The translations under genes and the position numbers were made by a program. This document shows positions 46,105 through 62,571 of a stretch of 64,000 nt of DNA, piece by piece. How positions within the stretch are numbered: position 1 is the first letter of the stretch; every line of letters begins with the position of its first letter. Origin of the DNA: Bacteroidales bacterium (lineage in GTDB: Bacteria > Bacteroidota > Bacteroidia > Bacteroidales > UBA3663). The stretch spans positions 19,680 to 83,679 of the forward strand of contig JAFZBE010000047.1 in assembly GCA_017561935.1 (NCBI GenBank), in the 5' to 3' direction. The notes under the pieces were generated by a model. It did no database searches and was not told the DNA's origin. It saw only the letters and a program-made list of their open reading frames with translations.

Positions 46105-46498
46105 GGGGCTGACTGGCTTTGACAGCGGGATGGGCCTCTGTGTAAGCATGCAGTGAGATGTCACCTATCACTATAATACATGATGGCGAAATATAATTGG
46201 CGAGAATAACTACGCTCTTGCTGCTTAATCGAAGTATAGTAGATTGAAGCTTAATCGGCTGCCAAGGGTGGCTGACAAGACATCACCCCAAGGTCCTTGT
46301 TCCGAGACTGAGGAACCGGTGGTGCAGGTAAATCGGGACTAATCAGGGTCTGCCTCGCGGCTCTGGTGAAATTTTTGAGGATAAGGTGCCGCTTGGTGGT
46401 CCAGGTCTTGGCGACACCCGACAATCCAGGCTGGAATAAGCATGTAGAAAGCGCCGATACCCCCTGTTTGGACGAGGGTTCGAACCCCTCCAGCTCCA
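46105..46498 (+). ncRNA. ssrA: tmRNA (transfer-messenger RNA)
   Basis: The 5' GGGGCTGA pairs with the 3' CAGCTCC-A acceptor end. T-arm GGTTCGAACCCCTC. Tag ORF ggc gag aat aac tac gct ctt gct gct taa = GENNYALAA* at 46199-46228. Confidence 0.92.
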
Positions 46499-46500
46499 CA

Positions 46501-46538
46501 AAAATCCTACGCAGAGTACGTTCTGCGTAGGATTTTTT
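46501..46538. terminator. rho-independent terminator of ssrA (may also end the convergent minus-strand operon)
   Basis: aaaatcctacgcaga / tctgcgtaggatttt is a 15-bp stem followed by a T run. Confidence 0.85.
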
Positions 46539-46594: not shown

Positions 46595-47617
46595 TCATTC
46601 TTTAATGATAAACCCTATGAGCCGAGGTCCGCTTCCTCCACCACAGGCAAGGAGGAAAAGAATGAAGATAATGCTGCCAATCCATCCCATCAGATAGACC
46701 ATGTGGCCGATGAACATCACCAGGAACAGGAAAGTGGCCAATGCACTCACCACATAGAGGGGGACATAAATCGCAAAGCCGATCAGTCCCGTCACACCCT
46801 TGTCGCCATCGATAAACATCGCGATAAGATGGAGTGCCAATCCGACGAAGAGAAGCAGAATGATCCACGGCTGGAGGAATGAGAAGAAGAAAAAGGTGAG
46901 CAGATAAAGGATTCCGCAGCCAAATACCGTAAGCGTACCGATATGTTTTGCGGCCGATCGCGCTTCATCCTCTCCCGCCAATCCGAAAAAGATGGATTGG
47001 ACAAAGAACAGGATGGACAGCATGACCAGCCAGAACACGATGGAGAACAACTCATCGTGAACGAAGAATCCAGGACTTCCACTATAGCCCAGCATACATT
47101 TCAACTCGTAATAGCCTAAAATGGCCAATCCCATCAAAGGGATGTATTTCCCCAAACGGAAGCTGCCAAAAATCTTGGATAATATCCAGCAAACCAACAA
47201 TACGATAAGCGGCAAGAAAAGCATATACTCGAAATAGCGGGTGGATTTGCTTTGCTCAATATGGATGCCAACGGAAGACAATGCATTCAGGAAATGTTTC
47301 TGAACGACCACAGCGGGATCCTTCACGTCTGCCTCGGGTTTTCCACCTACATCACCCGAAGTCGGTGATTTCCCTTTCTCCAAATACCTTGAAGCTACAT
47401 AGAATGTCTCGCCGGCATCATTCCTGCAGGTGGCCCATCCATTGACGATGGTATCCACGAGGATGACATCACCCTTCTTCAGTTCGCCCATTTTTTCGGC
47501 CGAGCCTTTAGGTGCTACCCTCATGTTCAGATTCGGGGAATTCACCACATAGGTTTCTGCTGCATAGCCCGCCATGCATAGCAGTAACAGTACGATAATT
47601 GTGACTAGTCTTTTCAT
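46595..47617 (-). CDS. signal-peptide SH3b-domain protein with about 6 C-terminal TM helices
   Basis: MKRLVTIIVLLLLCMAGYAA. YVVNSPNLNMRVAPKGSAEKMGELKKGDVILVDTIVNGWATC..FYVASRYL (bacterial SH3 pattern). Then long hydrophobic segments. Confidence 0.65.
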   Translation of the reverse strand: MKRLVTIIVLLLLCMAGYAAETYVVNSPNLNMRVAPKGSAEKMGELKKGDVILVDTIVNGWATCRNDAGETFYVASRYLEKGKSPTSGDVGGKPEADVKDPAVVVQKHFLNALSSVGIHIEQSKSTRYFEYMLFLPLIVLLVCWILSKIFGSFRLGKYIPLMGLAILGYYELKCMLGYSGSPGFFVHDELFSIVFWLVMLSILFFVQSIFFGLAGEDEARSAAKHIGTLTVFGCGILYLLTFFFFSFLQPWIILLLFVGLALHLIAMFIDGDKGVTGLIGFAIYVPLYVVSALATFLFLVMFIGHMVYLMGWIGSIIFILFLLACGGGSGPRLIGFIIKE

Positions 47618-47635
47618 AATATTATATTTTTGCCA

Positions 47636-50600
47636 TTAGTTTTTCAGTCCATCAATCTGGTTGAGCAGTTGCATGGTAGAAGCCATGTCGGCCTGTTCGA
47701 GAGCAACAAGACGTTCCTGCAAAGCCCTCTGTTTCAAAAGATATTCCAATCCCACACAGACCTCTGCCATATCAAGACGACCATAGTCGATAGCTGTCTG
47801 ACAAAGCATGCGCAGGAATTCGATCAACAGCTGGAAATCCTCGACACGACCTTTCTCGAAAACGGATTCATTGAGTATCGAGGCTATCTTCTCGCGATAC
47901 TCATCGGCCGAAGCCATATCATTATTCACCATATCCACCTGGGCACGAGTGGCATAGTAGTGCAGGGCTACGTTACGCACCTTGAGCGAATCGGGCATCA
48001 TCTTTGTCATCTTTTCGACCACCTCACCGGCAGATTTCAGGAAAAGAAGCGCCTTCGCGCCATCACCTGCACTCATTGCTGACACACGAGCCTGACGAAC
48101 CTTGTTGATCACAAAACTGCGCATCTTGTCGTCGTTATCAGGATCAGCATCAAGCTTCATTGACAGGATGTCCGATGCCGCCTGCAGGCTTGCCAGCGCA
48201 TCGGCGGTCTTTCCCTGCTTGTCGAGCATCTCGCCCAACTCATCGAAGATCAATGCCTTGTTCATCGGGTCGGGCTCGGCATCAGGCTTCTGACCAACCT
48301 TTTCCAATACCTGACGTCCAAGTGCTACTGCCTCATCGGTCTTGCCGCTTACCTTCAGCCGCATCATCTGATAATAGGCTGCCACCAGCAAATCGTCGGC
48401 ATGAAGGGAATCGGGGTTGCTCTCGAACAACTCTTCGAAGAGCTTGATAGCCTGTCCGGCACTCTGCTGGGCCTGGTCATATTCGTGGAAGAACTGGAAC
48501 AACATTCTGCCCGTGCCATCCAGTGCCGCCGCATAACGACGGACAACCTCGGGATTGCCTTCACGGAAACGCCGGTAGTTGTTGAAGACGGCATACTCAT
48601 GTTGCTTCTGATAGTAGAACGCGCTATTGTAGTCGCCATACTGCTCATAGTACTTGCTGATAACCGAATAGGCCAACGAATAGGCCGTAGTGGTGATAGC
48701 CGTATTGTTATGAGCACGTTTCATATCATTGATGGCATCGCGCAGCATCGATATCAGATTCTCGGCCGACTTGTGATCGCCATGATAGAGGTACAACTCG
48801 TTGCACAATTCGCCGGCGCTGCACAGGTTGTAGAAACTGAGCTGCAGGTACAATTCTGTTGCTGCATTACCATTCCTGTTAATATCCAGTATTGTACGGA
48901 AAGTGTGGAGAGCCTCAGCCACCCGTCCTGGCATATCGGCATGACTTGAGCTGTTCTTGCATAGGACGTTCCGCAACATCGAGGACAGGGAAGCAGCCGA
49001 TGCAGCCTCTTCTTCAGGAAGATGTTGCATTTGCCGATAGTCATCATAGTCGGGAATGGCTGCACCGAGAACTGCCGAAGCCTCGTCGGCCATATTGAGC
49101 ATCAGACGACCCATGAAGTCATCACCGGCCTCGAAAATAAGACCTGAGCCCTGGTGCAACAGCAAGGACATGGTATGTTTGCTGTTCACCCAACTGAAGG
49201 AATCGTAAACGTATGCCTCTCCTTTCCTGATCTGCCCGGCAGTTTCGGTATTGAAGATGCCCACTATCTCGGCTGCTGTCTTCTTATCGCCTGTATAGCT
49301 GAGGAACGTGGCAATATCCCTGGCAAGCACAACCGCATTGTCATTCCCGATATCCAGGACTTTCCTGAACCACTGGACAAAGTCATGACGGCGCTCGGAA
49401 AGGGCGATGGCGGCATTCACCAGATGGGGCCATACGAGAGAGGATGTATTGGAAAGAACCGCCTTCAGAACCTCTTCGGTGGGATTGTTGATTGCAATGG
49501 CTCCCATCTCGCGGCAAGCAAACTCATCATTCGGATTCTGATAAAGCAGATTGCCCATTCTGGCCGTGATATTCGCGTAGAAGTTCCCGAACGGCTCGTC
49601 ATCCTCATGGTGAACATACTTCACAATCCGGCGATAGCTCTGATAGGAAAAGTCAATGACGCCTGTACGGGAGTCGATCGTCAACAGGTCGCCCAACCAT
49701 CGTTTCATTGAAGAAAACTCCAACTGGTTCCAATAATCTCCCGCAAATGCCTGGAAATCCTGTTCACGCAAGCCGAAGCCGGTAGCAGCCAACAGGCGGA
49801 TGGAAGTCCATAGGAAACCGAAATTCATGAAACGGGCTGCGTCGTGGAGAAATACGATGAACAACTGTTCCGGATAAGGTGCAATCCGGCCCATCTCGTC
49901 GGTGATCTCCGTCAGGTAATTCTCGATGGCGGCATCTCCGTCGCCACGCATTCGGATCTGCTCATAATCGTAGGCTGTCAGACTTGTCAGTTTGCGTACC
50001 ATCAGCACATCCCATAACGGGCAGCCGCAACACAGTTCGTCATGCTCGGAGCGGGCATCCATCAGGTGATTGAGGACATTCTGCGGAAGGCTCTTGCCTT
50101 TCGCCTTCATCAATTCCCGAACAATCTGCCCACCTTCATCGGCATTGACAGGAGGCAAGAGAACCTTCGCGACATCCCATTCGGAGAAAAGATTCATCTT
50201 CTCGCTTTCTGCGGTAGCGATGAGCATACAGAAGTTCTGAAGTCCACCGAACATGAACTCATAGACATTCTGCATCAGATGAAGATCGTCGATGAGAAGG
50301 AGTGGTGGCATTTCAAGGTCCTTGGTAGCATGATAGAACTCCTCGGCCAGTTCACCGAACTCCACATCCTCGTCAAGACTGTAGCGGCGCTGTGGATGGA
50401 TTCGGGGGTCGGCAAGCCATTTTTTCAGCGCCAAAGCGGGAGTGTCGCCATAACGGGTAAAGTGGATGAACACCAACAGATCATCGACCTCCCCAAATCT
50501 TCGGTATGTTTCGCAGAGGAAAGCGGTTTTCCCATAGCCATAGCGGGCATAGATTAGACGGGGTTTCTGGTCTTCATCATATCTTGTCGCAATCTCGTTC

Positions 50601-51421
50601 AAGAAATTCTTGCGCGAATCGCAGTTCACATAGTGCTCACCTTCTTTTGCAATCTTCATGAGGTCGGCATCCGCCATCTGCTGGAACTCATTCACAGGAT
50701 TCTCCACTGCATTACTACCCTCATATAACATAATCTGAGCTTGCAGGGTCTTGATGAGGAACGATCCCAAGTCATCGAGTCCGGTCAACGATCGACCATC
50801 CCATCGGCAATTGTACTCATATATATTATTGCTACAGCTGGCTTTTTGGCAACCATCCTCAATCTTCTGCTTCAATGATGCAAGTTTGCGGTCGGCCTCG
50901 TCATTCAGGTTGCAGAACTTACGGCGAGCGACATCGTCCATCTGCTCATAGACGGCTGGATTGCGGAAACAGAACAGACAACGGCGCAAGGAGTTGGCAT
51001 CCATCAGGGCACCGAAGAGCATCTCAAGCTCTGTAACACTCTTCTGCTCACGGGATTCCTTACGGATGTACGTTCTTTCCTCGTCGGTCATCTCATCCAG
51101 CATCACCTGCCAACTTTCGGCCGATGGTATCCAGCCATAACGGTCGCCAAGCAGACCGATAAAGAATGGACGTGACTGGCGAATCTCAGAGATACACTCA
51201 CGCAGCACAATATTCTCCCGTTCATTCTCGTCGGCGTCCTGGGTGTTTACCCCCCAGCGCAAGTCGATGAACTGCAGCGTGAAGCCCTGTGGCGCCAGCA
51301 GCTGCTGAAGAGTCGGCGCGACTCTGTTCATGATCAGATCGCGCTCAGCATCCATGTCCTTGAAGGTACTGCTCAGGAACACCTTGATGTTCTTCCCGTT
51401 CTGCATGGCAGTATATGTCAT
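47636..51421 (-). CDS. STAND-type NTPase: DUF4062-like N-terminal domain + P-loop NTPase + C-terminal TPR-like repeats
   Basis: KVFLSSTFKDMDAERDL...FIGLLGDRYGWIP (aa 13-99). Walker A ARYGYGKT (nt 50525-50548). Walker B LLLIDDL (nt 50282-50302). The last ~400 aa form a helical repeat region with TPR-like periodicity. Confidence 0.8.
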   Translation of the reverse strand: MTYTAMQNGKNIKVFLSSTFKDMDAERDLIMNRVAPTLQQLLAPQGFTLQFIDLRWGVNTQDADENERENIVLRECISEIRQSRPFFIGLLGDRYGWIPSAESWQVMLDEMTDEERTYIRKESREQKSVTELEMLFGALMDANSLRRCLFCFRNPAVYEQMDDVARRKFCNLNDEADRKLASLKQKIEDGCQKASCSNNIYEYNCRWDGRSLTGLDDLGSFLIKTLQAQIMLYEGSNAVENPVNEFQQMADADLMKIAKEGEHYVNCDSRKNFLNEIATRYDEDQKPRLIYARYGYGKTAFLCETYRRFGEVDDLLVFIHFTRYGDTPALALKKWLADPRIHPQRRYSLDEDVEFGELAEEFYHATKDLEMPPLLLIDDLHLMQNVYEFMFGGLQNFCMLIATAESEKMNLFSEWDVAKVLLPPVNADEGGQIVRELMKAKGKSLPQNVLNHLMDARSEHDELCCGCPLWDVLMVRKLTSLTAYDYEQIRMRGDGDAAIENYLTEITDEMGRIAPYPEQLFIVFLHDAARFMNFGFLWTSIRLLAATGFGLREQDFQAFAGDYWNQLEFSSMKRWLGDLLTIDSRTGVIDFSYQSYRRIVKYVHHEDDEPFGNFYANITARMGNLLYQNPNDEFACREMGAIAINNPTEEVLKAVLSNTSSLVWPHLVNAAIALSERRHDFVQWFRKVLDIGNDNAVVLARDIATFLSYTGDKKTAAEIVGIFNTETAGQIRKGEAYVYDSFSWVNSKHTMSLLLHQGSGLIFEAGDDFMGRLMLNMADEASAVLGAAIPDYDDYRQMQHLPEEEAASAASLSSMLRNVLCKNSSSHADMPGRVAEALHTFRTILDINRNGNAATELYLQLSFYNLCSAGELCNELYLYHGDHKSAENLISMLRDAINDMKRAHNNTAITTTAYSLAYSVISKYYEQYGDYNSAFYYQKQHEYAVFNNYRRFREGNPEVVRRYAAALDGTGRMLFQFFHEYDQAQQSAGQAIKLFEELFESNPDSLHADDLLVAAYYQMMRLKVSGKTDEAVALGRQVLEKVGQKPDAEPDPMNKALIFDELGEMLDKQGKTADALASLQAASDILSMKLDADPDNDDKMRSFVINKVRQARVSAMSAGDGAKALLFLKSAGEVVEKMTKMMPDSLKVRNVALHYYATRAQVDMVNNDMASADEYREKIASILNESVFEKGRVEDFQLLIEFLRMLCQTAIDYGRLDMAEVCVGLEYLLKQRALQERLVALEQADMASTMQLLNQIDGLKN

Positions 51422-52362
51422 AAGGATGTCATATATGGTCGAATGTGGGAGAATATGCCCTCCTGCAATTGATCGACATTGATCATCAGATAGAGCAACC
51501 CCATGTCATAGAAACGCAGGTCGAAATAGTCGCTGGCATCGGTATCCAACTGCAACAGCTGTACCCATCCCGTTCCAAACTCGTTGTCCACATCCTCCTC
51601 GTAGGGCTTGCCTAAAAGTCGGAACCCATCACCACGCACTGGACCTTCTGAGAAGGTGATGATATGAGGCGATATCATATCGTCCTCCTGGAATGGATTT
51701 ACGCGTTTCAATTTGCAGGAGGGCACATCGGCATAAATGACCTTGACAGCATATTCCGGCCACTTGCCCAGTCCGTATGGTTGCTTCACGTCATAGCCGA
51801 GAAAATAGTCTATCTCGCCGAAGAACCAAAGCATCCCCCGCTTGGGCAACCAGTCATTATCGGGAAGATCCCCGCAGTTGATCTGACAAATGAACTGCAT
51901 GGGATACCTATTGCCGTCTTCATCGGTCGTGAAGGGATACATATCCTCGGAAGGCAACTGTGGGGCATCCCAGAAATAACTGCTGCCCGAAGGCTGTGCG
52001 ACGTCGGATGGAGTCAGTTCCATATCAATCCCATGGGGCCTTGCCAATTTGACACAATGCTGTATCTCGGATTGAATCCCCCACATGGCAGCTTCCGAAT
52101 CTGCCCGTATTCCTTCACTCAGTACCACCTCCTCACCCGTCTTGATAGTGTACTCCATGCCTCTGTACTCCAGGCCGAGCTGTCTTCCGTCGTAGAATGT
52201 CACTACAGGATTATCCCCCTTGCAATTATTCCAATGAGGTAGTTCTTGTCCTACGACAAGTTCCTCTTCAGGAATTTCGTACTGCTGCATGAGACTCCTG
52301 CCCATATTGACACCACGGTCGTGGGGTATTTCATAGATGTTGATGTAACAAACTGAAGACAT
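51418..52362 (-). CDS. DUF1963 (YwqG-like) domain protein
   Basis: YPMQFICQINCGDLPDNDWLPKRGMLWFFGE and WVQLLQLDTD...FYDMGLLYLMI match the DUF1963 pattern. The stop overlaps the STAND start (ATGA). Confidence 0.65.
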   Translation of the reverse strand: MSSVCYINIYEIPHDRGVNMGRSLMQQYEIPEEELVVGQELPHWNNCKGDNPVVTFYDGRQLGLEYRGMEYTIKTGEEVVLSEGIRADSEAAMWGIQSEIQHCVKLARPHGIDMELTPSDVAQPSGSSYFWDAPQLPSEDMYPFTTDEDGNRYPMQFICQINCGDLPDNDWLPKRGMLWFFGEIDYFLGYDVKQPYGLGKWPEYAVKVIYADVPSCKLKRVNPFQEDDMISPHIITFSEGPVRGDGFRLLGKPYEEDVDNEFGTGWVQLLQLDTDASDYFDLRFYDMGLLYLMINVDQLQEGIFSHIRPYMTSL

Positions 52363-52373
52363 CGTTATATCGT

Positions 52374-52985
52374 TTAGTCAAATATTACTCTTGGGTTCAT
52401 TATTCCTGGCGAACGCCATTCTATACCATATTCTGCCAACAGTTCACGTTTAGCCGACCAATAGCGGAAACAGAAGCCCATGTGGCGTGGCACACCCTTC
52501 AGTTCTTCATAGAGTCTTCGCTCTACTTCGTCAATCACCGACAGATAAGCATCGCTGTCCTCAACAGGGTCGTATTTCAGTGAGGGATTCTCCAGCCGGT
52601 CAAGACTGTACTCACAGTTCTCTTTGTCTTCCTCATCAATGGCATGATGGAGAGCTTTCTGAAAGGCTTTCTTTGCCATCAGGCGACGCGTATTCATCGA
52701 GTAGCATTCGCCTATGTCAAAATATGAGCGACACTTCCATTTGGCATTCTCTTCCGTATCCGGCTGGTCGTCGAGGAGCTCTTCGGCCTTAGCCAGAAGA
52801 GGCATCGCCAACCAACCCCGCTCATCACGGATATAGTTATCAGCCAGCTTTATCAATGCTATCACATAGTCGGAAATAGTCCCCTGATTAGGATTCTGCT
52901 CGTAAATCCGTCTGGTGATATCCACCAACTTCTCCTCATCAGAAGCCAGGTTTTCTGCCTGGCGAAGAACTGTTTTAGTATCCAT
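52374..52985 (-). CDS. hypothetical helical protein with conserved-looking C-terminal module
   Basis: 203 aa with a helical/TPR-like N-half. C-terminus RHMGFCFRYWSAKRELLAEYGIEWRSPGIMNPRVIFD. It is the first gene of the operon. Confidence 0.55.
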   Translation of the reverse strand: MDTKTVLRQAENLASDEEKLVDITRRIYEQNPNQGTISDYVIALIKLADNYIRDERGWLAMPLLAKAEELLDDQPDTEENAKWKCRSYFDIGECYSMNTRRLMAKKAFQKALHHAIDEEDKENCEYSLDRLENPSLKYDPVEDSDAYLSVIDEVERRLYEELKGVPRHMGFCFRYWSAKRELLAEYGIEWRSPGIMNPRVIFD

Positions 52986-53016
52986 GATTTTAGTTTTATG
53001 TTGTTATATTGTGGGG

Positions 53017-53024
53017 CAAATATA
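53017..53024 (-). promoter_or_regulatory. -7 box (TATATTTG) for the four-gene STAND operon
   Basis: The plus strand reads caaatata, 32 nt upstream of the ATG at 52985. Confidence 0.55.
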
Positions 53025-53498
53025 GGTGAAAAAAATGAAAGAACAAAATTAAAAGCGAAAAAATTATAGAAAAGTTTTGGACCCTATTTATTTTATGCAC
53101 GAAGTGCAATTATATGCAGGTATTGGACCTGCAATTTTCCGGCCTGAAGAATGCTGTTGAATCAGCATTCGAAGGGAGAGGCCCCATTCTTGGGGACTGC
53201 CTTAGCCGATTATATTAATCCGGGCTATTGAAGCCCACGTCTCAAATCCATTTTCACCTCCTTTTCTTGATATTATCGGTTTCTGTTTTCGATTTGTCGA
53301 AATGGATACTGCAAATATAGCGATATTTTGATAAATGTCCAAATAAATTGGAATCTTTTTGGAAAAAGAGTTAAAAAAATGAGTGGCATCCGTAATGGAT
53401 GTCCTACTCGATCTTGCCATAGGGCGCTTGTTAGCAAAAATTAACGTTTCTATTCAAAAAAATTACCGTTTAAATTTGCAGGTTTCGCAGAAAACCAT

Positions 53499-53506
53499 TA
53501 TCTTTG
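53499..53506 (+). promoter_or_regulatory. -7 box (TATCTTTG) for the 53543 gene
   Basis: tatctttg lies 37 nt upstream of the ATG. A second TAAATTTG box is at 53471-53478. Confidence 0.5.
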
Positions 53507-53542
53507 CAGCCGCGAATTGATAAGATGATGGTTGGATTTTAG

Positions 53543-54247
53543 ATGTTTGAGAAGATGGAAGCACTAAAGCAGTTGATTCTAGAAACATTGGCCACTCGTT
53601 TCGAAGGTGAGGAGTGGACCAAATTTGTGACGCTCGAACAGATCGCCGATGCTATGGTCAATGGTATCGACATTATGAAACTCAGGGATATCCTGGCCAA
53701 GAAGGCCGATAGGCGTCCCTTTACACTCTCAATGATCCGAAGGGAGAAGATGGTTAATCACAACTCTGTGGCCGGTTATTGGGAGATTTGTGCGGTGCGT
53801 GGTGACGAGCAGATCGTCATCCCATTTACTAACAGGTATTCGAAGGTGCTTTACACCTTCTTTATGCTGCATCCTGGACAAGAGTTCACGCTCGCGGGTC
53901 TTCAGAAGTACCACGGTGAGTTCAGACGTATTGCGCTCGCCCTGTTTTATGACTCGGAGAAAACTCACACCAAAGCTACACTCCTTGATGCTGAGAAGAT
54001 TGCCACCACGATGTGCAGTCGCTTCGGATTATCGGAAAAGGAGGGAAGCAACAATGAGCGTTCGGTGGCTCTTTCCAGGGCAAAGAGGTCCGTCCTCGAC
54101 ACTCTTGGCGAGGCGGCAGGCGATTACGTTATTCAGAGGACTTCAGACAAGGAGAAGCGCGTGCTGCGTCTTGCGCCCAATCTTGTACGTGTTCCTGAAG
54201 CATTCCGTGAAATCGTTGAAGGTTGGCAAGGGGGCCTTGTGGCGTAA
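53543..54247 (+). CDS. hypothetical protein (234 aa)
   Basis: Clean ORF with its own promoter and a downstream hairpin. I recognise no motif. Confidence 0.55.
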   Translation: MFEKMEALKQLILETLATRFEGEEWTKFVTLEQIADAMVNGIDIMKLRDILAKKADRRPFTLSMIRREKMVNHNSVAGYWEICAVRGDEQIVIPFTNRYSKVLYTFFMLHPGQEFTLAGLQKYHGEFRRIALALFYDSEKTHTKATLLDAEKIATTMCSRFGLSEKEGSNNERSVALSRAKRSVLDTLGEAAGDYVIQRTSDKEKRVLRLAPNLVRVPEAFREIVEGWQGGLVA

Positions 54248-54293
54248 CGTCATGGGGCCCCCTTGCCCGTTTGCAAGGTAGTAATGAACCAAC

Positions 54294-54325
54294 GAAAGCA
54301 GCTCGACTCACGTCGGGCTGCTTTC
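54294..54325. terminator. bidirectional stem-loop between convergent genes
   Basis: gaaagcagc / gctgctttc stem. Separately, a 12-bp inverted repeat GGCAAGGGGGCC/GGCCCCCTTGCC (54224-54266) brackets the stop codon. Confidence 0.55.
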
Positions 54326-54369
54326 TTCAACGCAACAATCTACTAAAATCCTCTTACGTCTTTATCTTA

Positions 54370-54834
54370 CTATGGAAGTGGATGAGGATGATGTGGATGC
54401 GTTTCGAAGTGGAAACCATAATCATCAAATATCATTACCGGAGCGTGGCTGCGCACGATGACTACGGGTGCCTTGCGCTCCACAACAACAACTTCTCTTT
54501 CGGGTTCGGCCTCGATGGGCGCAGTCTCTCCCTCGATGGGATCGTAAGCGGCATCGATGGGATCACCATTCTGATCGACAACGACCGTGCGCTCTACAAC
54601 CACTGGACGGGTAGCTGCCTTGGTGATGGCATGATCGACAACTGCGCCGATGGCTGCACCGAGGATGAACGAGCCGATGCTACCATGATAGTAGGGGGCA
54701 GGTCCACAGTGAACATATCCGTGGTGTGGACCACCATAGTGGCCTCCGTAGTAGCCGTAGTGACGAGGCTGTGCGAAAACGGTTCCTGCGGCGCAGGCTA
54801 CTATCAGTACGAGGGTGGTTAGGATCTTCTTCAT
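54370..54834 (-). CDS. small secreted His/Gly/Tyr-rich protein
   Basis: Signal peptide MKKILTTLVLIVACAAGTVFA. QPRHYGYYGGHYGGPHHGYVHCGPAPYYHG. One hydrophobic segment. C-terminal ETHPHHPHPLP. Confidence 0.55.
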   Translation of the reverse strand: MKKILTTLVLIVACAAGTVFAQPRHYGYYGGHYGGPHHGYVHCGPAPYYHGSIGSFILGAAIGAVVDHAITKAATRPVVVERTVVVDQNGDPIDAAYDPIEGETAPIEAEPEREVVVVERKAPVVIVRSHAPVMIFDDYGFHFETHPHHPHPLP

Positions 54835-55004
54835 TGTCTTATTTCGTTTTTGAGGTTAATTATCTTGTTCTTTTGCCTCTATGACGCAGCACCCTCCAGA
54901 TGGTTTATCCCCTGGTCCTCATTTTTAGCATTTCTTGACAACAATCCTAAACTTTCCTAACGGTTTAAACCTTTGGCCTAGTAGTTGTCATTTCACAAAA
55001 TATG

Positions 55005-55050
55005 AATGCCCAGCCGATCACGAGAATCAGCTGGGCATTTCTCTTTCTTC
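55005..55050. terminator. stem-loop terminator at the end of the 58.7-55.1 kb minus-strand gene string
   Basis: aatgcccagc / gctgggcatt is a 10-bp stem with T-rich flanks on both strands. Confidence 0.65.
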
Positions 55051-55115
55051 TCATTGCGGATGTTTATTCCATGCTGGGAGACGATGATGGATGTTGATTT
55101 TTATTCATCAAGAAT

Positions 55116-55388
55116 CTACTGTTTCGAGTCTATTATCGGTTTGATTTCTCGTTCAAAAAAGCCCTTCTCTTCAATTCTGTAGTGAGGAAGATATGCCTTC
55201 ACCCTCTCACTGTCCGAAACGAGATGCTCCGCACCAATATTATCCTGAAAGCACGACTTGTAGATATTCAGGAGCCGCGACTCCGAATAGATTTCCATCT
55301 GCCCATTGACGAACTTCTCTATGTCTTGGGCGTGAAGTGTTAGGGCGTACAGGAAGGCTATTGTTAGGAGGTTTTTTTTATGGACTAT
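55116..55388 (-). pseudogene. small secreted-protein gene lacking a canonical start codon (ATA at the expected start)
   Basis: The frame is open upstream of the track's ATG (55298) and encodes a signal-peptide-like (I)VHKKNLLTIAFLYALTLHAQD. There is no ATG/GTG/TTG between the upstream stop (55461-55463) and 55298. Confidence 0.35.
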
Positions 55389-55437
55389 TGTTTCGTTCTT
55401 ATATTTCTCTCTTTCTTGATGAATCGCTTTGCAAAGA

Positions 55438-56856
55438 TTATTGGTTAGAGAGCATGTCGGCTATTAATGGACATTCTCCTTTGCGCCACAAGCATTTATT
55501 ATTTAATTGACGTTCATATAATATGTATGCGGTGAACTCCATAAGGGATGATACATAATCGAACTGTACTCCCCCTTTAGGGCTATTTATTCCATCAAGA
55601 ATCCATTCTTCAATTCCATCTGGAACATCCTGAAAAAAGTAATATTTTTCTTCCTCACTGGCATTGGGTGGTAGATGTTTATTATAAACCAAGAAGTTTA
55701 CATCAAGAAGGTCTATGTCAATTCCAAATAGTTCTTTCCAGATACATTTCATTTCGTCATTTTGAGAAATGGCATTTTCAAGTGTCCTATCTACAGGTTC
55801 GTCATCAAATTCAGGATCATATTCAACTCTAAATTCATTATGACACAAATCTCCTTTAAGAAGGATATCCCAAGCTTTTGTGACATAGTATAAAGGTACT
55901 TCATAGGTGCCACCTTTTACTACGGTATTCAAAGATAGATCGTATCGTTTATTTACAATACGTTCTTTAAAAACTTCAGGAAGAATATAAAATACGCAAC
56001 CGATACTAATTATATCAGTGTTTTTTTCCCATTCTTTATTGGTTCTATTCCATTTGTCGTTTTCAATAATCTTCTCAACCACTGACTCAAAGCGCGTTTT
56101 AAGTTCTGGATAATTGTTTGCGGCAATTCCCCAACCTTCTACTTCAGTCTTATCAGGTGAAATAAAATTCCCATATAATCGTAAGTCTTTGTCTGAAATC
56201 TTAGTTGTTGTTGAATAGCCTTTATATTCAAGATGGTATTGCTTAGCTTGATAAAAGGATTCAATTATTTCAGACTTCAATCTTATTTTTTTGCTATTTC
56301 TGAGAGTAGTGTATATCCTTCGGACCAAGTCTTCAACGCGTGAAAACATACTCTTCCCAATTCTGTCTTCAGTAGAATTATATGTATAAAAGATACAGCA
56401 TTCTTCTAATGGAACACTAAGATCGCTTTTCCAATATTTCTCATGATAATTGCCTGGATTGCCTATCAATAGTTTAATGCCCATAGTGTAGATGTCGCCT
56501 GAATTCTTTTCATTGCCAAGAATAAACTCCTTTGGAGAATCTTTTTTGTTTAAAAGTAGATTTTCGAGCCATTCAAATATATGCTTGATATCTGTCATCG
56601 TGAAATCAAAATAGAGACGTTCATTGTAGAATCCATTAACGTTAATCTCCAATATTCCGGACTGTTTGGAATAGTTCAGAATGTCGGTAATTATATCACC
56701 TAAATGATTAGGCAAATTATTCATAAGTTTATCAATTTCCTTTTGTATTGTTTCCTCTTTCATATTCGAATGTATAAATGATGATTCATAATCAATGTCT
56801 ATATCGCAGGCATGAGTGTGTGTCTTTCCCTTTTTTACCTTGAAATGGGTAAACAT
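55438..56856 (-). CDS. hypothetical protein (472 aa) in an AT-rich patch
   Basis: Long clean ORF with a K/N/I/E/Y-rich product. It is visibly lower in GC than the flanking genes. I recognise no motif. Confidence 0.6.
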   Translation of the reverse strand: MFTHFKVKKGKTHTHACDIDIDYESSFIHSNMKEETIQKEIDKLMNNLPNHLGDIITDILNYSKQSGILEINVNGFYNERLYFDFTMTDIKHIFEWLENLLLNKKDSPKEFILGNEKNSGDIYTMGIKLLIGNPGNYHEKYWKSDLSVPLEECCIFYTYNSTEDRIGKSMFSRVEDLVRRIYTTLRNSKKIRLKSEIIESFYQAKQYHLEYKGYSTTTKISDKDLRLYGNFISPDKTEVEGWGIAANNYPELKTRFESVVEKIIENDKWNRTNKEWEKNTDIISIGCVFYILPEVFKERIVNKRYDLSLNTVVKGGTYEVPLYYVTKAWDILLKGDLCHNEFRVEYDPEFDDEPVDRTLENAISQNDEMKCIWKELFGIDIDLLDVNFLVYNKHLPPNASEEEKYYFFQDVPDGIEEWILDGINSPKGGVQFDYVSSLMEFTAYILYERQLNNKCLWRKGECPLIADMLSNQ

Positions 56857-58753: not shown

Positions 58754-58859
58754 AGCATTATTTTTGACATAAGATGCATTCAGCAAGAAAAATGAAGGGT
58801 TGGGTTCATTTTTTCCAAAATTCAACCGATTGCACACGGACAAAAACGTGGGAGGATGA

Positions 58860-59280
58860 TGGAAAGTCGAGGTATAACCAATTTTGGCCAAGAAAGGGTA
58901 TTCTTCGGTGGGAGAAAGACCAAAGTTGGCCAAGAAAGGGTATGCCGCGATGGGAGCATGACCAGTTTTGGCCAAGAAAGGGTATGCTGCGGTTGGATAG
59001 AGCACTCTGACGGGCGACAGAGTGCTTGCTCCGGTTGAAGTATGACCAAAGTTGGCCAAGAAAGGGTATGCCGACGTTGGAGAATGACCAGTTTTGGCTA
59101 AGAAAGGGTATGTCTCGGTTGGATAGAGCACTCTGACGGGCGACAGGATGCTTGCTCCGGTTGGAATATGACCGATCTTGGCCGAGAAAGGGTATGCGGA
59201 GGTTGGAGAATGACCATTTTCGGCCGAGAAAGGGTATGCCGCGATAGGAGTATAACCAGTCTTGGCCAAGAATGGTCATA
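58860..59280. repeat. 42-bp tandem repeat array with 126-bp higher-order periodicity
   Basis: The core GGCCAAGAAAGGGTA (and variants) starts at 58886, 58928, 58970, 59054, 59096, 59180, 59222 and 59264, so spacings are 42 or 84 bp. Every third unit is replaced by a hairpin-bearing unit (agcactctg-N8-cagagtgct at 59001-59026, degenerate copy at 59127-59152). Confidence 0.85.
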
Positions 59281-59297: not shown

Positions 59298-59532
59298 TCA
59301 TTCTTCATTCTGAGCGGACTTCTCGTTGCGGGAGCGGAGTTTCTCGGCATTTTCGATGATGATCTTCCAGGAAACGCTGATCGACATTCAGGTAGAAGGC
59401 GACTTCCTGTGCGGAGTGAGTCTTTACTCATTTGACATAATCGACGACGGCATCGACGGCGATCTGTCCGGTGGGAGCCCCTCCTGTCTTCCAGAGCTCC
59501 TCAACTGTGGTAATTTGTTTGATAAAAATCAT
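59298..59532 (-). pseudogene. decayed small HTH-like gene (in-frame TGA plus apparent frameshift)
   Basis: MIFIKQITTVEELWKTGGAPTGQIAVDAVVDYVK-TGA(59428-59430)-VKTHSAQEVAFYLNV... Protein-like sequence then continues in the +1 frame (MSISVSWKIIIENAEKLRSRNEKSAQNEE*). Confidence 0.3.
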
Positions 59533-59566
59533 ACTGTTTGTTTTTTAAGGGTTAATATTGGTTTTT

Positions 59567-59650
59567 TTATCACGAATTGGCGAATTATAGAATTATTATG
59601 GCGGGTGGACTTCTGTCCTGTCAATTCTTTAATTCTCGAATTCGTGATTA
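59567..59650. repeat. TIR-bounded short element, copy 1
   Basis: TTATCACGAATTGGCGAATTATAGAATTATTAT ... GTCAATTCTTTAATTCTCGAATTCGTGAT. The termini ATCACGAATT/AATTCGTGAT are inverted repeats. Confidence 0.7.
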
Positions 59651-59666
59651 AGAAATGCTTCGCTCA

Positions 59667-59773: not shown

Positions 59774-59799
59774 CTCGCTGTCCTCTATCTCCTTTCTCT

Positions 59800-59913
59800 T
59801 TATCACGAATTATCGAATTATAGTATTATTATATCAAGCAGACTTTATCTGTTGAACTGTTATCGAGAGTCAACCTCAACACAGTCAATTCTTTAATTCT
59901 CAAATTCGTGATA
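59800..59913. repeat. TIR-bounded short element, copy 2 (direct repeat of 59567-59650 with a longer insert)
   Basis: TTATCACGAATTATCGAATTATAGTATTATTAT ... GTCAATTCTTTAATTCTCAAATTCGTGATAA. Confidence 0.7.
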
Positions 59914-59995
59914 AAAAATAACGTCTTACCCTCTCTTCTAGACCTTCGTTTATTTATAGGATGACAAAGTGGACCCAAGGGGGGACCCTCTCGTT

Positions 59996-60055
59996 CCCCC
60001 TGCTTAGGGGGAGGACTTGCTTGTCCGGACTTACTTCTTCCCCCTAAGCAGGGGG
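59996..60055. repeat. inverted pair of the CCCCCTAAGCAGGGGG hairpin motif just 3' of the 60068 gene
   Basis: ccccctgcttaggggg (59996-60011) and ccccctaagcaggggg (60040-60055). The same motif lies 3' of the crtI-like gene at 39446-39461. Confidence 0.7.
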
Positions 60056-60067
60056 ATTAGAGGGGGT

Positions 60068-60934
60068 CTAATCGTAGAGGGCGTGGAGGTCGGTCTGACT
60101 CAGGACTTCGTTATGATGGAGGACGAGGTTGTGGGTCAGACGGCCGCGATGGCCGTAGAGGATGTGCTGGAAACGGTGGCGCCAGTCCCACGAGAGGAGC
60201 TGGTAGTCGTTGCAGCGGCGAGTGAAACCGAAGAAGCCGATGCGGATGATCTTGCCGACCGAGTCGGGTGGCAGTGTGTGGAGGATGTCATTGCAGCAGC
60301 GTACGAGCGGATACTGGATGACATTGATCATACGCTGCTGGCGGGCAGCCTTGGTCATTCGACTGACGGTGCGAGGGCTGCGTCCTGTTGCCTTGGCCAG
60401 ATAGTTCACTGACAAGATGGTCTTTGCCGCATGAGAAGCACTTCCCGTGAGGGGAAGCCCCTTCGATTGTAACTCGTCGGCTCGGGTCTTGGCACTGATG
60501 TTGGTCAGAAGAAGCAGTTGGCGCATCTCACTTTCGATTTCAGTGACGTGGAGGTTTTCGCGAGGGCAGCACTTCACCTTTCCCACCACCATCTCGAGGC
60601 TTTTGCGTCCGCCCTTGAGGGTGACTTGGGTGGCGTACATCTTCTTCAGCGAACGGGCAACGATGATCTGCCGTCCGTTGGGGCACGTCGTCATCTGGAA
60701 CAGGCTGTTGCCTTCGCGGATGGCATCGAGGAGATTGTGCGCCTTGGTGTAGCCGAGGTGGAAGTCGCTGCGGAACTTCTTCTCGCTGGTGAAGATGTAG
60801 GTGCTGCTGGGACTAAGGCACTTCATGGCTACACTGAGGGCGACGAGGCTCCACTGCAAGGGGTCTTCCTTGACCTCCTGCAGCAGTGCCATCGGCACGT
60901 TGATGTAGTCCATTGTCAGTACTCTTGGTCTCAT
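60068..60934 (-). CDS. hypothetical protein (288 aa) with a probable helix-turn-helix
   Basis: Start placed at MRPRVLTMDYINVP, 17 nt after the first TAACTTTG box. LSVNYLAKATGRSPRTVSRMTKAARQQ is HTH-like. No family recognised. Confidence 0.6.
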   Translation of the reverse strand: MRPRVLTMDYINVPMALLQEVKEDPLQWSLVALSVAMKCLSPSSTYIFTSEKKFRSDFHLGYTKAHNLLDAIREGNSLFQMTTCPNGRQIIVARSLKKMYATQVTLKGGRKSLEMVVGKVKCCPRENLHVTEIESEMRQLLLLTNISAKTRADELQSKGLPLTGSASHAAKTILSVNYLAKATGRSPRTVSRMTKAARQQRMINVIQYPLVRCCNDILHTLPPDSVGKIIRIGFFGFTRRCNDYQLLSWDWRHRFQHILYGHRGRLTHNLVLHHNEVLSQTDLHALYD

Positions 60935-60944
60935 TGGTTTTTTT

Positions 60945-61400
60945 CGTTGCAAAGTTACGAAAAGGAAATTTGGCACTGTCCGAATTTGTCCGAATTTGTC
61001 CGAATTTGTCAGTTTTCGGAACAATGCTTTTTCACGATGCAAAGTTACGAAAAAGAAAATTGGCAGTGTCAGTTTGTGTCACTTTATGTCACTTTCCGAT
61101 ATATTGCCTCTTTTTCGTTGCAAAGTTACGAAATCGAAATTTGGCACTGTCCGCATTTGTCCGCATATGTCCGCTTATGTCCGTTTTCAGCAAAGCAATG
61201 TCTCGTCATTTGCGTTGCAAAGTTACGAAATAGTATTTTGGCATTGTCACCTTAGTGTCACCCTACGCATGGCGATGTCACCTTAGTGTCACCTTAATGT
61301 CACCTTACGAAAAGGAGCGCCTCTTTTTCGCTGCAAAGTTACGAAAAACAAATTTGGCAATGTCCAGCTTTGTCCAGCTATGTCCATTTGTGTCCAATTA
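60945..61400 (-). promoter_or_regulatory. array of five promoter-like modules, each with its own 10-11-bp TGTC-phased microrepeat
   Basis: GCAAAGTTACGAAA (minus strand: TTTCGTAACTTTGC, i.e. a TAACTTTG -7 box) occurs at 60959, 61039, 61120, 61217 and 61333. Each is followed by A(A/T)TTGGCAnTGTC and 3-5 repeats. See finding. Confidence 0.6.
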
Positions 61401-61638: not shown

Positions 61639-62571
61639 ATGGTTGACAACGATCGAGGACAAAGCTTGATAAGCAAGTACGTTTGGGTGATAGACACTAT
61701 CTATCGCTGTCGTAAGATCTCGTTCAAAGAATTGAATGAGAGATGGCTGCGTGATACGGATATAAGCAGAGGTGTGGATATCCCCAAGCGAACTTTTGAC
61801 AACTGGCGATATGTCATCTGGGATATGTTCGGCATCAGTATCGTTAACGAGAATCGTGGCGATTATCGTTATTACATCGAGAACGAAGAGGACATCAGTG
61901 GGAACGGACTCCGCTCTTGGCTTTACAATACGTTCTGCGTGAGCAACGCTGTGGCCAACAGTCAAAGTGTCAAGGATCGTATCATCTTGGAATATGTGCC
62001 ATCGGGTCAGAATTATCTGAAACGTATCATTGATGCGATGAAGGAAAACCGTGTCCTCAACATAACCTACCGTAGCTATTGGAAAGACAATGAGAATAAT
62101 TTCGATGTGCAGCCCTACTGTGTGAAGTTGTATCGTCAACGATGGTATATGGTGGCACAAAGCATCAATCCGAATTATTTTGAGAAAGGACCACGTATCT
62201 ATGCTTTGGATCGTATCAAGAAACTCTTCATCAAGGATGAGCCTTTCGAAATGCCGAAGGATTGGAGTGCCCGAGATTTCTTTGATGGATGCTTTGGTAT
62301 CATTGCTGAGCAGACTGTTGAGGTTCAGCCGGTGAAACTTAAGGTTTCTGCACGACAGGCCAATTATATCCGCGATTTGAAAATGCATGAGTCGCAGGAA
62401 GAGATAGAACGTAACGAGGAATATAGCATTTTCAGAGTCTTTCTCCGTCCTGAGTTCGATTTCCAGCAGGAAATACTTTGGAATGGCGAGGACATGGAAG
62501 TGCTTGAGCCTCTTTGGCTCCGTCAGGAGATAGCTGAAAAGGTAAAAAGAATGTGGGATAAATATCAATAA
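61639..62571 (+). CDS. HTH-WYL-domain transcriptional regulator (BrxR/CapW-like architecture)
   Basis: N-terminal HTH (YVWVIDTIYRCRKISFKELNERW). WYL core RVLNITYRSYW...FDVQPYCVKLYRQRWYMVAQS....RIYALDRI. C-terminal extension. Confidence 0.8.
   Translation: MVDNDRGQSLISKYVWVIDTIYRCRKISFKELNERWLRDTDISRGVDIPKRTFDNWRYVIWDMFGISIVNENRGDYRYYIENEEDISGNGLRSWLYNTFCVSNAVANSQSVKDRIILEYVPSGQNYLKRIIDAMKENRVLNITYRSYWKDNENNFDVQPYCVKLYRQRWYMVAQSINPNYFEKGPRIYALDRIKKLFIKDEPFEMPKDWSARDFFDGCFGIIAEQTVEVQPVKLKVSARQANYIRDLKMHESQEEIERNEEYSIFRVFLRPEFDFQQEILWNGEDMEVLEPLWLRQEIAEKVKRMWDKYQ

Follow-up and report, generated by a model that had tools for sequence, protein, structure and literature searches.

Organization of the module array

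In a 64-kb stretch of Bacteroidales DNA from contig JAFZBE010000047.1 (the whole analyzed stretch is called the window here), five modules lie in tandem upstream of an intact 288-codon open reading frame (ORF) on the minus strand (60068..60934), each consisting of a conserved core and an adjoining set of short direct repeats. The plus-strand 15-mer TGCAAAGTTACGAAA occurs in exactly five copies, at 60948, 61038, 61119, 61216, and 61332, against 0.09 copies expected by chance, and five copies were reached in 0 of 100 shuffles. The cores are spaced at 90, 81, 97, and 116 bp along the array. The conserved core block comprises 43 nt, is 81 to 100% identical between the five copies, and reads TGCAAAGTTACG-N10-TTGGCA-N-TGTC on the plus strand. 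An earlier interpretation based on the letters of the window (the sequence-only reading) had described five tandem cores with phased microrepeats, which the 15-mer count and Tandem Repeats Finder confirm. Its anchors for modules 3 to 5 and its last three spacings also stand, but its anchor for module 1, 60959, is about 10 nt too high, and the first spacing is 90 rather than 80 bp.

Three to five direct repeats of 10 bp, or 11 bp in module 4, adjoin each core, and all modules are carried by the minus strand. The repeat types named here are those of the related loci described below. Module 1 (core, 60948..60981) adjoins the 288-aa gene, and its type G2 repeats (60977..61016) read on the plus strand as three copies of TGTCCGAATT at 60977, 60987, and 60997 and a variant fourth unit, TGTCAGTTTT, at 61007. 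The type F repeats of module 2 (core, 61038..61071; repeats, 61067..61096) are TGTCAGTTTG at 61067, TGTCACTTTA at 61077, and TGTCACTTTC at 61087, while module 3 (core, 61119..61152; repeats, 61148..61187) carries four TGTCCGnnTn units of type D at 61148, 61158, 61168, and 61178. Module 4 (core, 61216..61249; repeats, 61245..61308) has type C units with an 11-bp period, similar to TGTCACCTTAG, at 61245, 61256, 61276, 61287, and 61298, with an interruption of 9 nt at 61267-61275. Module 5 (core, 61332..61365; repeats, 61361..61400), the most distant from the gene, has type B2 units at 61361, 61371, 61381, and 61391.

Tandem Repeats Finder reported a repeat in each module, with a period of 10 at 60977-61010 (module 1; 100% matches), 61066-61095 (module 2), 61148-61183 (module 3), and 61360-61386 (module 5) and a period of 11 at 61275-61307 (module 4). 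The unit starts of the sequence-only reading agree with ours for modules 3, 4, and 5 and exceed them by 10 nt for modules 1 and 2. The spaced motif GACA-N6-GACA-N6-GACA occurs seven times in the window, with 0.03 expected, and all seven occurrences are within the array. The array region has a G+C content of 0.40 to 0.47 and no distinct AT-rich block, and its inverted repeats are short (10 to 13 nt).

Promoter-like features of the modules

Read on the minus strand, each module consists of a short spacer, three to five N6-GACA units, and G-TGCCAA-N10-CGTAACTTTGCA. The core of this cassette, GGACA-N-TGCCAA-N10-CGTAnCTTTGCA (GGACA-G-TGCCAA-N10-CGTAACTTTGCA in module 1), is present in all five modules. 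All five also contain TAACTTTGC on this strand, which fits the -7 consensus of Bacteroides, TANNTTTGY (PMC12632263), in agreement with the perfect Bacteroidota -7 box noted earlier. In module 1 this box is TAACTTTG at 60950-60957. A -33 TTTG element is expected about 19 to 21 nt upstream of a Bacteroidota -7 box. It is absent in all modules, and the GACA of the last repeat occupies its site, 19 nt before the -7 box. Neither this box nor the interval that separates it from the last repeat varies across the modules. The 7- to 8-bp stem described around the box was recovered as a 7-nt stem in some modules only and is only partly conserved among relatives.

All five modules point toward the 288-aa gene, their predicted target, and the core of module 1 ends 14 nt before its ATG (60934). 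It had been noted that only module 1 directly fronts a gene, and this holds, the 288-codon ORF being intact and the ORFs that overlap modules 2 to 5 not being conserved. A sigma-54 promoter was considered and rejected by eye; GTGCCA is the reverse complement of TGGCAC, but the GG-N10-GC spacing fits neither strand.

Stacks and single cassettes in related loci

A scan for the core returned 19 loci from a set with one genome per species and at least 80 loci from JGI metagenomes. With the loci reached via protein homologues added, the collection comprises 245 cassettes (175 unique) from about 100 related loci, nearly all of them from rumen Bacteroidales. The core scan of viral contigs gave 0 matches, and no match to the array was found by BLASTN in plasmid or phage collections. 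In an information profile of the 175 unique cassettes, the core reaches 1.6 to 2.0 bits, peaks with a period of 10 lie upstream of it, and the invariant skeleton is GGACAgTGCCAA-N10-CGTAaCTTTGCAnCG.

Stacks hold two to seven cassettes, and all of them precede a 288-aa gene, none being found before another gene. In 31 of the 31 fetched relatives with at least two cassettes and enough downstream DNA, the 288-aa gene begins 9 to 297 nt past the last core. The repeat sets of the stacks fall into seven types, A to G, in the nearly fixed order A-B-C-D-E-F-G. The full series is found in L005, L054, and L092, and at least 15 compositions occur (for example, A-B-D-E-F-G, A-B-D-F-G, and D-E-G); that of the window, B-C-D-F-G, is unique among the loci. 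Recombination between the near-identical cores of about 40 bp would yield such varying subsets in a nearly fixed order. The repeat types are kept in stacks whose proteins have 72 to 74% identity (L003 and L079). Hybrid modules were also seen: type G modules of the stacks in L001, L011, and L016 mix G1 units (AAACCGACA) with G2 units (AATTCGGACA), L016 has a B/F hybrid module, and one module of L011 (at 1792) is without the last GACA. Such hybrid operator sets might respond to two regulators.

Single cassettes sit between a DUF4248 gene and a gene for DUF6261 or HU-HIG. A 70-aa DUF4248 gene (Pfam E value of about 1e-24) lies upstream of 48 single-cassette loci and is divergent in 46 of them, 116 to 658 nt from the core (1,252 nt in L070). 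In the other two, L046 and L091, it is codirectional and only about 30% identical. The downstream gene encodes DUF6261 in 35 single-cassette loci and HU-HIG instead in a more distant lineage. One fuller context reads DnaB helicase, then DUF4248, the cassette, and, downstream of it, DUF6261, PDDEXK_3, and Amidase_2. The sequence-only reading had asked whether modules normally precede genes and whether their number varies between strains. Both are the case, with DUF6261 or HU-HIG genes behind single cassettes, the 288-aa gene behind stacks, and variation in composition as well as number.

At least 10 single-cassette types were distinguished (A, B1, B2, C, D, E, F, G1, G2, and H, and perhaps I, from one locus), and the modules of the window are copies of these. 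Compared over the repeat stretch, module 1 (first GACA at plus-strand position 60980) is identical to single-copy G2 at 40 of 40 nt, module 5 (61364) to B2 at 39 of 40, and module 4 (61248) to C at 55 of 63, including the same 9-nt interruption. The best match of module 2 (61070) is to F, at 32 of 40. Module 3 (61151) scores 33 of 40 against both D and G2, a tie that the score alone does not decide; its placement in type D is based on the CGGACA units. Among themselves, the modules of the window are identical at 10 to 33 of 40 nt over the same stretch. No DUF4248 or DUF6261 gene adjoins any stack; the stack modules are orphan copies of cassettes. The multi-input promoter stack that had been proposed as one of several possibilities fits these comparative data, in that the modules are full copies of control regions that occur singly, all face one gene, and retain the same -7 geometry.

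Single loci keep a conserved leader of about 45 to 60 nt after the core. Two kinds of leader were seen. After the first, GAATCGCAAACGAGGGCAG..., DUF6261 begins 66 to 72 nt later (for example, L010, L023, and L074); after the second, GATCTTTGAAATAnCGGCATCGATTTC..., 300 to 900 nt of variable sequence precede DUF6261 (L071 and L025). Each leader was seen with several repeat types, which shows that recombination has taken place at the core. Some promoter cores, both in stacks and in single cassettes, are directly followed by an inserted element of about 270 nt (L019, at 6040-6330 and after 6524, and also L047, L059, L072, and L103). It is bounded by terminal inverted repeats, GGTGAAAATGGC...GCCATTTTCACC, contains several hairpins, and creates a spurious ORF of variable length that starts with MADNLGPMAW. 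The cassettes of Paludibacteraceae (L007, L020, and L021) have AGTGCCAGAT, GCAACGGTAA, or GGGACGCAGT units and the core TGCCAATCCCCGCTATCGTATCTTTGCA.

The conserved leader, together with the small hairpins that can be drawn just past some cores, would suit a small-RNA cluster in which each module makes its own short RNA and is not a promoter of the protein gene. We consider this very unlikely. The spacers between the modules measure just 21 to 28 nt, a minus-strand scan detected no intrinsic terminator inside the array, and the array folded as RNA no better than its shuffles (z = -0.78). A search of the window and 10 loci against Rfam matched only tmRNA and nothing in the array.

That the modules are recombination sites rather than promoters is extremely unlikely. 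Phased direct repeats resemble the arm-type and Xis sites of integrative elements, such as P' and X1-X2 of phage lambda, some single loci lose conservation about 50 nt past the core, where contigs often break, and a tmRNA gene, a common integration target, is 14 kb away. However, no integrase or recombinase was present in the gene lists around stacks or single cassettes, the array has only short inverted repeats, none of them attC-like, and the modules keep a fixed order, always before one gene. Neither arm-type or Xis-type sites nor the empty integron-like cassette junctions that had been suggested would explain the strict promoter geometry, and the latter suggestion is not upheld.

Covariation of repeats with DUF4248

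The repeats of single cassettes covary with the neighboring DUF4248 protein. The mean amino acid identity of DUF4248 is 94% within a repeat type and 70% between types (maximum, 84%). DUF6261 can be 96 to 100% identical across differing repeat types, as in L031 (type D) and L066 (type H), and within one repeat type its identity can fall to 75%. In a Mantel test, which is free of type assignments, the repeat block correlated with DUF4248 at a Spearman rho of 0.56, a value reached in 0 of 2,000 permutations; for DUF6261, rho was 0.13 and was reached in 354 of 2,000 permutations. Within DUF4248, the residues that vary are concentrated in a long helix (residues 22 to 35) and its surroundings. Since the repeat type follows DUF4248 and not the downstream gene, the tandem promoters probably each answer a different DUF4248-type regulator.

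The same pattern was found in a second, distant lineage, where L046 and L091 have 97% identical HU-HIG genes and near-identical leaders. Identity between the two DUF4248 proteins, however, is about 65%, and the repeats of one locus, GCGTTTGAsr, bear no relation to those of the other, CGTTTAAGGn and CGTATAAGTA. The GACA of the repeats is therefore not universal and belongs to the core. TGTC, or GACA, was accordingly rejected as a universal recognition element, and the earlier remark that the repeats share only TGTC is weakened as a pointer to the recognized element, because other lineages pair unrelated 10-mers with the same core. A sequence search of DUF4248 against PDB gave tetratricopeptide repeat (TPR) matches, which were dismissed as spurious.

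The 288-aa gene and its 2.7-kb unit

The 288-aa protein has no family match in Pfam, NCBIfam, PHROG, or PADLOC, and a sequence profile search of PDB found nothing. In a profile search of a set of 5.8 billion proteins, the family closed at about 45 protein clusters, among which the only name is "hypothetical protein"; its traced sources are rumen Bacteroidales. From the fold matches of its AlphaFold model (pLDDT, 81), the protein looks like a tandem winged-helix protein. The model gave only weak matches in PDB, to multi-winged-helix structures (RPC62, MarR, SarS, and RepE, all with E values above 0.01). In a viral library, the best matches were two unnamed phage proteins (E values of 3e-10 and 6e-7; TM score of about 0.5), followed by proteins named replication initiator, replication protein O, and replisome organizer (E values of 3e-4 to 1e-1). 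By hhalign, the family is unrelated to the Lin1244_N-like protein of the DUF4248 cluster.

The 288-aa protein is 88 to 95% identical across stacks of differing module sets. The sequence-only reading had offered this protein and a WYL protein encoded next to the array as possible binders of the modules. For the 288-aa protein, five specificities are unlikely at a conservation of about 90% over differing sets. The WYL/WCX-domain gene (61639-62571, plus strand) adjoins the array only in the window and in L042, and its absence from nearly all relatives led us to reject the WYL protein as the binder. L013 has the array and a 358-aa gene (84% identical) without the WYL gene, which marks an insertion or deletion difference rather than a conserved unit.

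Homologues of the 288-aa protein at 64, 55, and 50% identity are encoded without repeats, and TTTGG lies about 20 nt upstream of their -7 box, at the expected -33 site. This supports a dependence of the cassettes on a bound factor. The most distant homologue, at 43% identity, has one set of four different phased 10-mers, TAAACGTCAR, upstream. These four units stand before CGTATCTTTGCA in L112 (330-410). Upstream of the 50% homologue, L111 has repeats of about 60 nt that contain TGGCCAGACAAGC (900-1100).

In relatives, the 288-aa gene is followed by a gene for a 162-aa AraC-type HTH_18 protein and then by a tandem array of a 42-bp unit. Stack, 288-aa gene, HTH_18 gene, and 42-bp array make up a unit of about 2.7 kb, which recurs across many genomic contexts and, in several genomes, more than once. 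The HTH_18 gene of the window has decayed to a pseudogene (59298..59532, minus strand), with TGA at about codon 39 and residues 58 to 140 or so deleted. The 42-bp array (58877..59272, minus strand; 9.4 copies) has a palindrome, TTGGCCAA, in each unit and also a higher-order period of 126 bp, and its position 3' of the HTH_18 gene is kept in relatives (for example, L012 at 5578-5987). The 288-aa protein or the AraC-type protein might bind to this array. The 157-aa ORF at 58806-59279 and the "208-aa" genes of relatives are translation artifacts of the 42-bp repeat. A G+C-rich hairpin of 21 nt (59995-60056) lies directly 3' of the 288-aa stop codon. Between the 288-aa gene and the HTH_18 remnant are two palindromic elements of about 95 to 120 nt (59562-59655 and 59797-59918) with terminal inverted repeats of about 32 nt, TTTTTTATCACGAATTGGCGAATTATAGAATT and AATTCTTTAATTCTCGAATTCGTGAT, that look like miniature inverted-repeat transposable elements (MITEs).

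The main rival reading compares the unit with an integrated replicon, whose iteron origin or autoregulatory operator the modules would then form. The 288-aa protein would act as a Rep-like initiator and would recognize either the phased repeats or the GACA/TGCCAA elements common to all modules, in order to start replication or to shut down its own promoters. The fold matches to phage proteins and initiators (and, weakly, to RepE), the 42-bp array of nine copies at the other end of the unit, the multiple copies per genome in many contexts, and the four phased 10-mers upstream of the 43% homologue are all in keeping with such an element. However, cassettes also occur singly with DUF4248 and DUF6261 and without a 288-aa gene, seven specificities would be left unexplained by a protein that is so conserved over the stacks, the 50 to 64% homologues have plain promoters, and the -7 box geometry is strictly kept. 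There is no DnaA box (TTWTNCACA) within 60940-61400, and no Rep family was matched in Pfam, NCBIfam, or PHROGs, nor any Par family. An iteron origin is thus unlikely, although the 288-aa protein may bind the shared core, and the ori/par region that had been put forward for a plasmid-like element finds no backing here.

A second alternative denies the distal modules a role as promoters. The roughly 20 orphan binding sites would titrate DUF4248-type proteins as a decoy, or the stack would be a neutral by-product of unequal recombination between the cores, and only the proximal promoter would matter. The lack of a DUF4248 gene adjoining any stack, the at least 15 compositions, as recombination between near-identical cores predicts, the MITE-like insertions within several stacks, and the decay of the HTH_18 gene in the window are consistent with this. 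Nevertheless, the distal cores are as well conserved as the proximal ones, the -7 box included, the modules invariably face the gene, and no stack was seen elsewhere. The repeat types are retained at 72 to 74% protein identity (L003 and L079), and no terminators separate the modules. We regard a decoy or a neutral array as improbable.

Past a tmRNA gene (46105-46501), the G+C content of the genes is lower or uneven (46595-56856). These genes include those for a 1,261-aa DUF4062/TPR protein and a DUF1963 protein and several family-less ORFs, with no PADLOC matches, and the region looks like a variable island next to the tmRNA gene.

A model for multi-input control of the 288-aa gene

We propose that the array consists of five tandem promoter cassettes that read into the 288-aa gene, with each repeat set cognate to a DUF4248-type regulator, and we put the probability of this reading at about 60%. 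The phased repeats would be the specificity element of the cassette, represented in the window by the five types B2, C, D, F, and G2, and each set would copy an operator that is found singly between a DUF4248 variant and its DUF6261 or HU-HIG target gene. A DUF4248-type protein from its own locus would bind the cognate repeats head to tail, in trans, and the bound protein would control RNA polymerase at the adjoining core. Because the -33 element is missing, activation is the most likely outcome, as with class II activators such as PhoB or SARP. In the absence of terminators between cassettes, any of the five regulators could drive the 288-aa gene, which would make the stack an OR gate, and recombination between cores would generate the strain-specific subsets of two to seven cassettes. 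What the loci show is the architecture and its conservation, the confinement of stacks to the 288-aa gene, and the covariation of repeats with DUF4248; that the cassettes act as promoters, that DUF4248 binds them in trans, and that it activates them is inferred.

Several points weigh against this proposal. The promoter activity of modules 2 to 5 is deduced from sequence alone. Another sigma factor may be involved, since a CG that precedes the -7 box is also conserved and the arrangement GGACA-N17-CGTA resembles the geometry of extracytoplasmic function (ECF) promoters. TGCCAA, the most conserved element, is without an assigned reader. The structural model of DUF4248 (pLDDT, 88) has no significant fold match in PDB to a DNA-binding protein. 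DUF4248 lies about 100 bp from the repeats, and physical linkage could cause much of the covariation. Type G was split into G1, G2, and H after the differences in DUF4248 had been seen, although the Mantel test is independent of types. The 64-kb window contains neither a DUF4248 nor a DUF6261 gene, and the first of these absences counts here. Finally, since the HTH_18 gene is a pseudogene, this copy of the unit may be decaying.

What the unit gains from such control can be suggested with much less confidence. It is a speculative and rather doubtful extension of the model that the 2.7-kb unit is a hitchhiker or sentinel that eavesdrops on up to seven DUF4248-controlled elements. These elements would be the clusters of DnaB helicase, DUF4248, DUF6261 or HU-HIG, and amidase genes. 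Once any one of them turned on the DUF4248 regulator of its own, expression of the Rep-like 288-aa gene would start from the matching cassette. The unit would then serve as a satellite that has many helpers or, alternatively, as a trigger directed against the elements, and the gain and loss of cassettes would tune which partners a strain listens to.

If multi-input control by DUF4248-type proteins is correct, DUF4248, a domain of unknown function that is spread through the Bacteroidales, gains a concrete and testable role, namely, as small regulators with private operators of helically phased 10-mers. A lineage-specific expansion of HU-HIG in the Bacteroidetes has been noted without explanation (PMC5499826), and the model would link HU-HIG and DUF6261 genes to DUF4248 as their regulator. 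The array would also be a natural modular promoter, with a constant core and an exchangeable block, up to seven of which are chained and reshuffled between strains. Such a design would help in studies of gene regulation in Bacteroidales of the rumen and gut and could supply orthogonal promoter-regulator pairs as parts for bacteria that are hard to engineer.

Comparison with known systems

A search of the literature on DUF4248, DUF6261, HU-HIG, and direct-repeat promoters of Bacteroides found neither this architecture nor a function for DUF4248. Regulated promoters with phased direct-repeat operators in tandem are known. Two features seem to be without a published description, namely, the use of one constant core with interchangeable specificity blocks, each matched to a DUF4248 variant, and the chaining of up to seven of these blocks in front of a single gene, in sets that vary between strains.

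The closest resemblance in promoter layout is to the pho boxes of PhoB and the sites of SARP regulators in Streptomyces. There, as in the array, direct repeats of 10 to 11 bp are arranged head to tail, the proximal repeat replaces the -35 element (here the -33 element), and the promoter keeps a good downstream box. In contrast to these systems, the candidate regulator here is DUF4248, which is without a fold match and is not an identified winged-helix protein of the OmpR type. The array further differs in having three to six units per set, an invariant TGCCAA in the spacer, and up to seven specificity sets chained upstream.

In parC of plasmid R1, about five repeats phased at 11 bp likewise abut a promoter core and serve as the operator for ParR. 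The repeats of R1 parC are of one kind and lie on both sides of the promoter, whereas those of the array are one-sided and of five kinds, and no ParR/ParM or ParA/ParB genes were found. Iteron replicons (plasmids with RepE or pi, and lambda with its O protein) share with the 2.7-kb unit a tandem winged-helix gene beside direct repeats and a separate array of longer repeats (here 42 bp, nine copies). Classical iterons measure 17 to 22 bp and belong to a single kind that is specific for the neighboring Rep protein. The repeats described here also occur without the 288-aa gene, and neither DnaA boxes nor a Rep family match accompanies them.

Regulators of the Xis type offer a parallel for the putative DNA-binding protein itself. 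Lambda Xis acts on X1-X1.5-X2, and Xis2d of CTnDOT activates the tra promoter in Bacteroides. Like DUF4248 in our model, such regulators are proteins of about 70 aa that act cooperatively on phased direct repeats, and in Bacteroides they can activate a promoter from just upstream of the -33 position. Unlike in Xis systems, no integrase or att context was seen around the cassettes, the model of DUF4248 gave no significant fold match, and paralogous specificity types are present and stacked.

With tandem promoters that are read by multiple sigma factors and with the satellite promoter Psid of P4, which is fired by the helper activator Ogr of P2, the array shares the principle that serial promoters give one gene several independent inputs and, in the case of Psid, that a gene outside an element listens to the regulator of that element. 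In contrast to those promoters, the cores of the array are near identical and only the operator repeats differ, and the number of inputs varies from two to seven by the gain or loss of whole cassettes.

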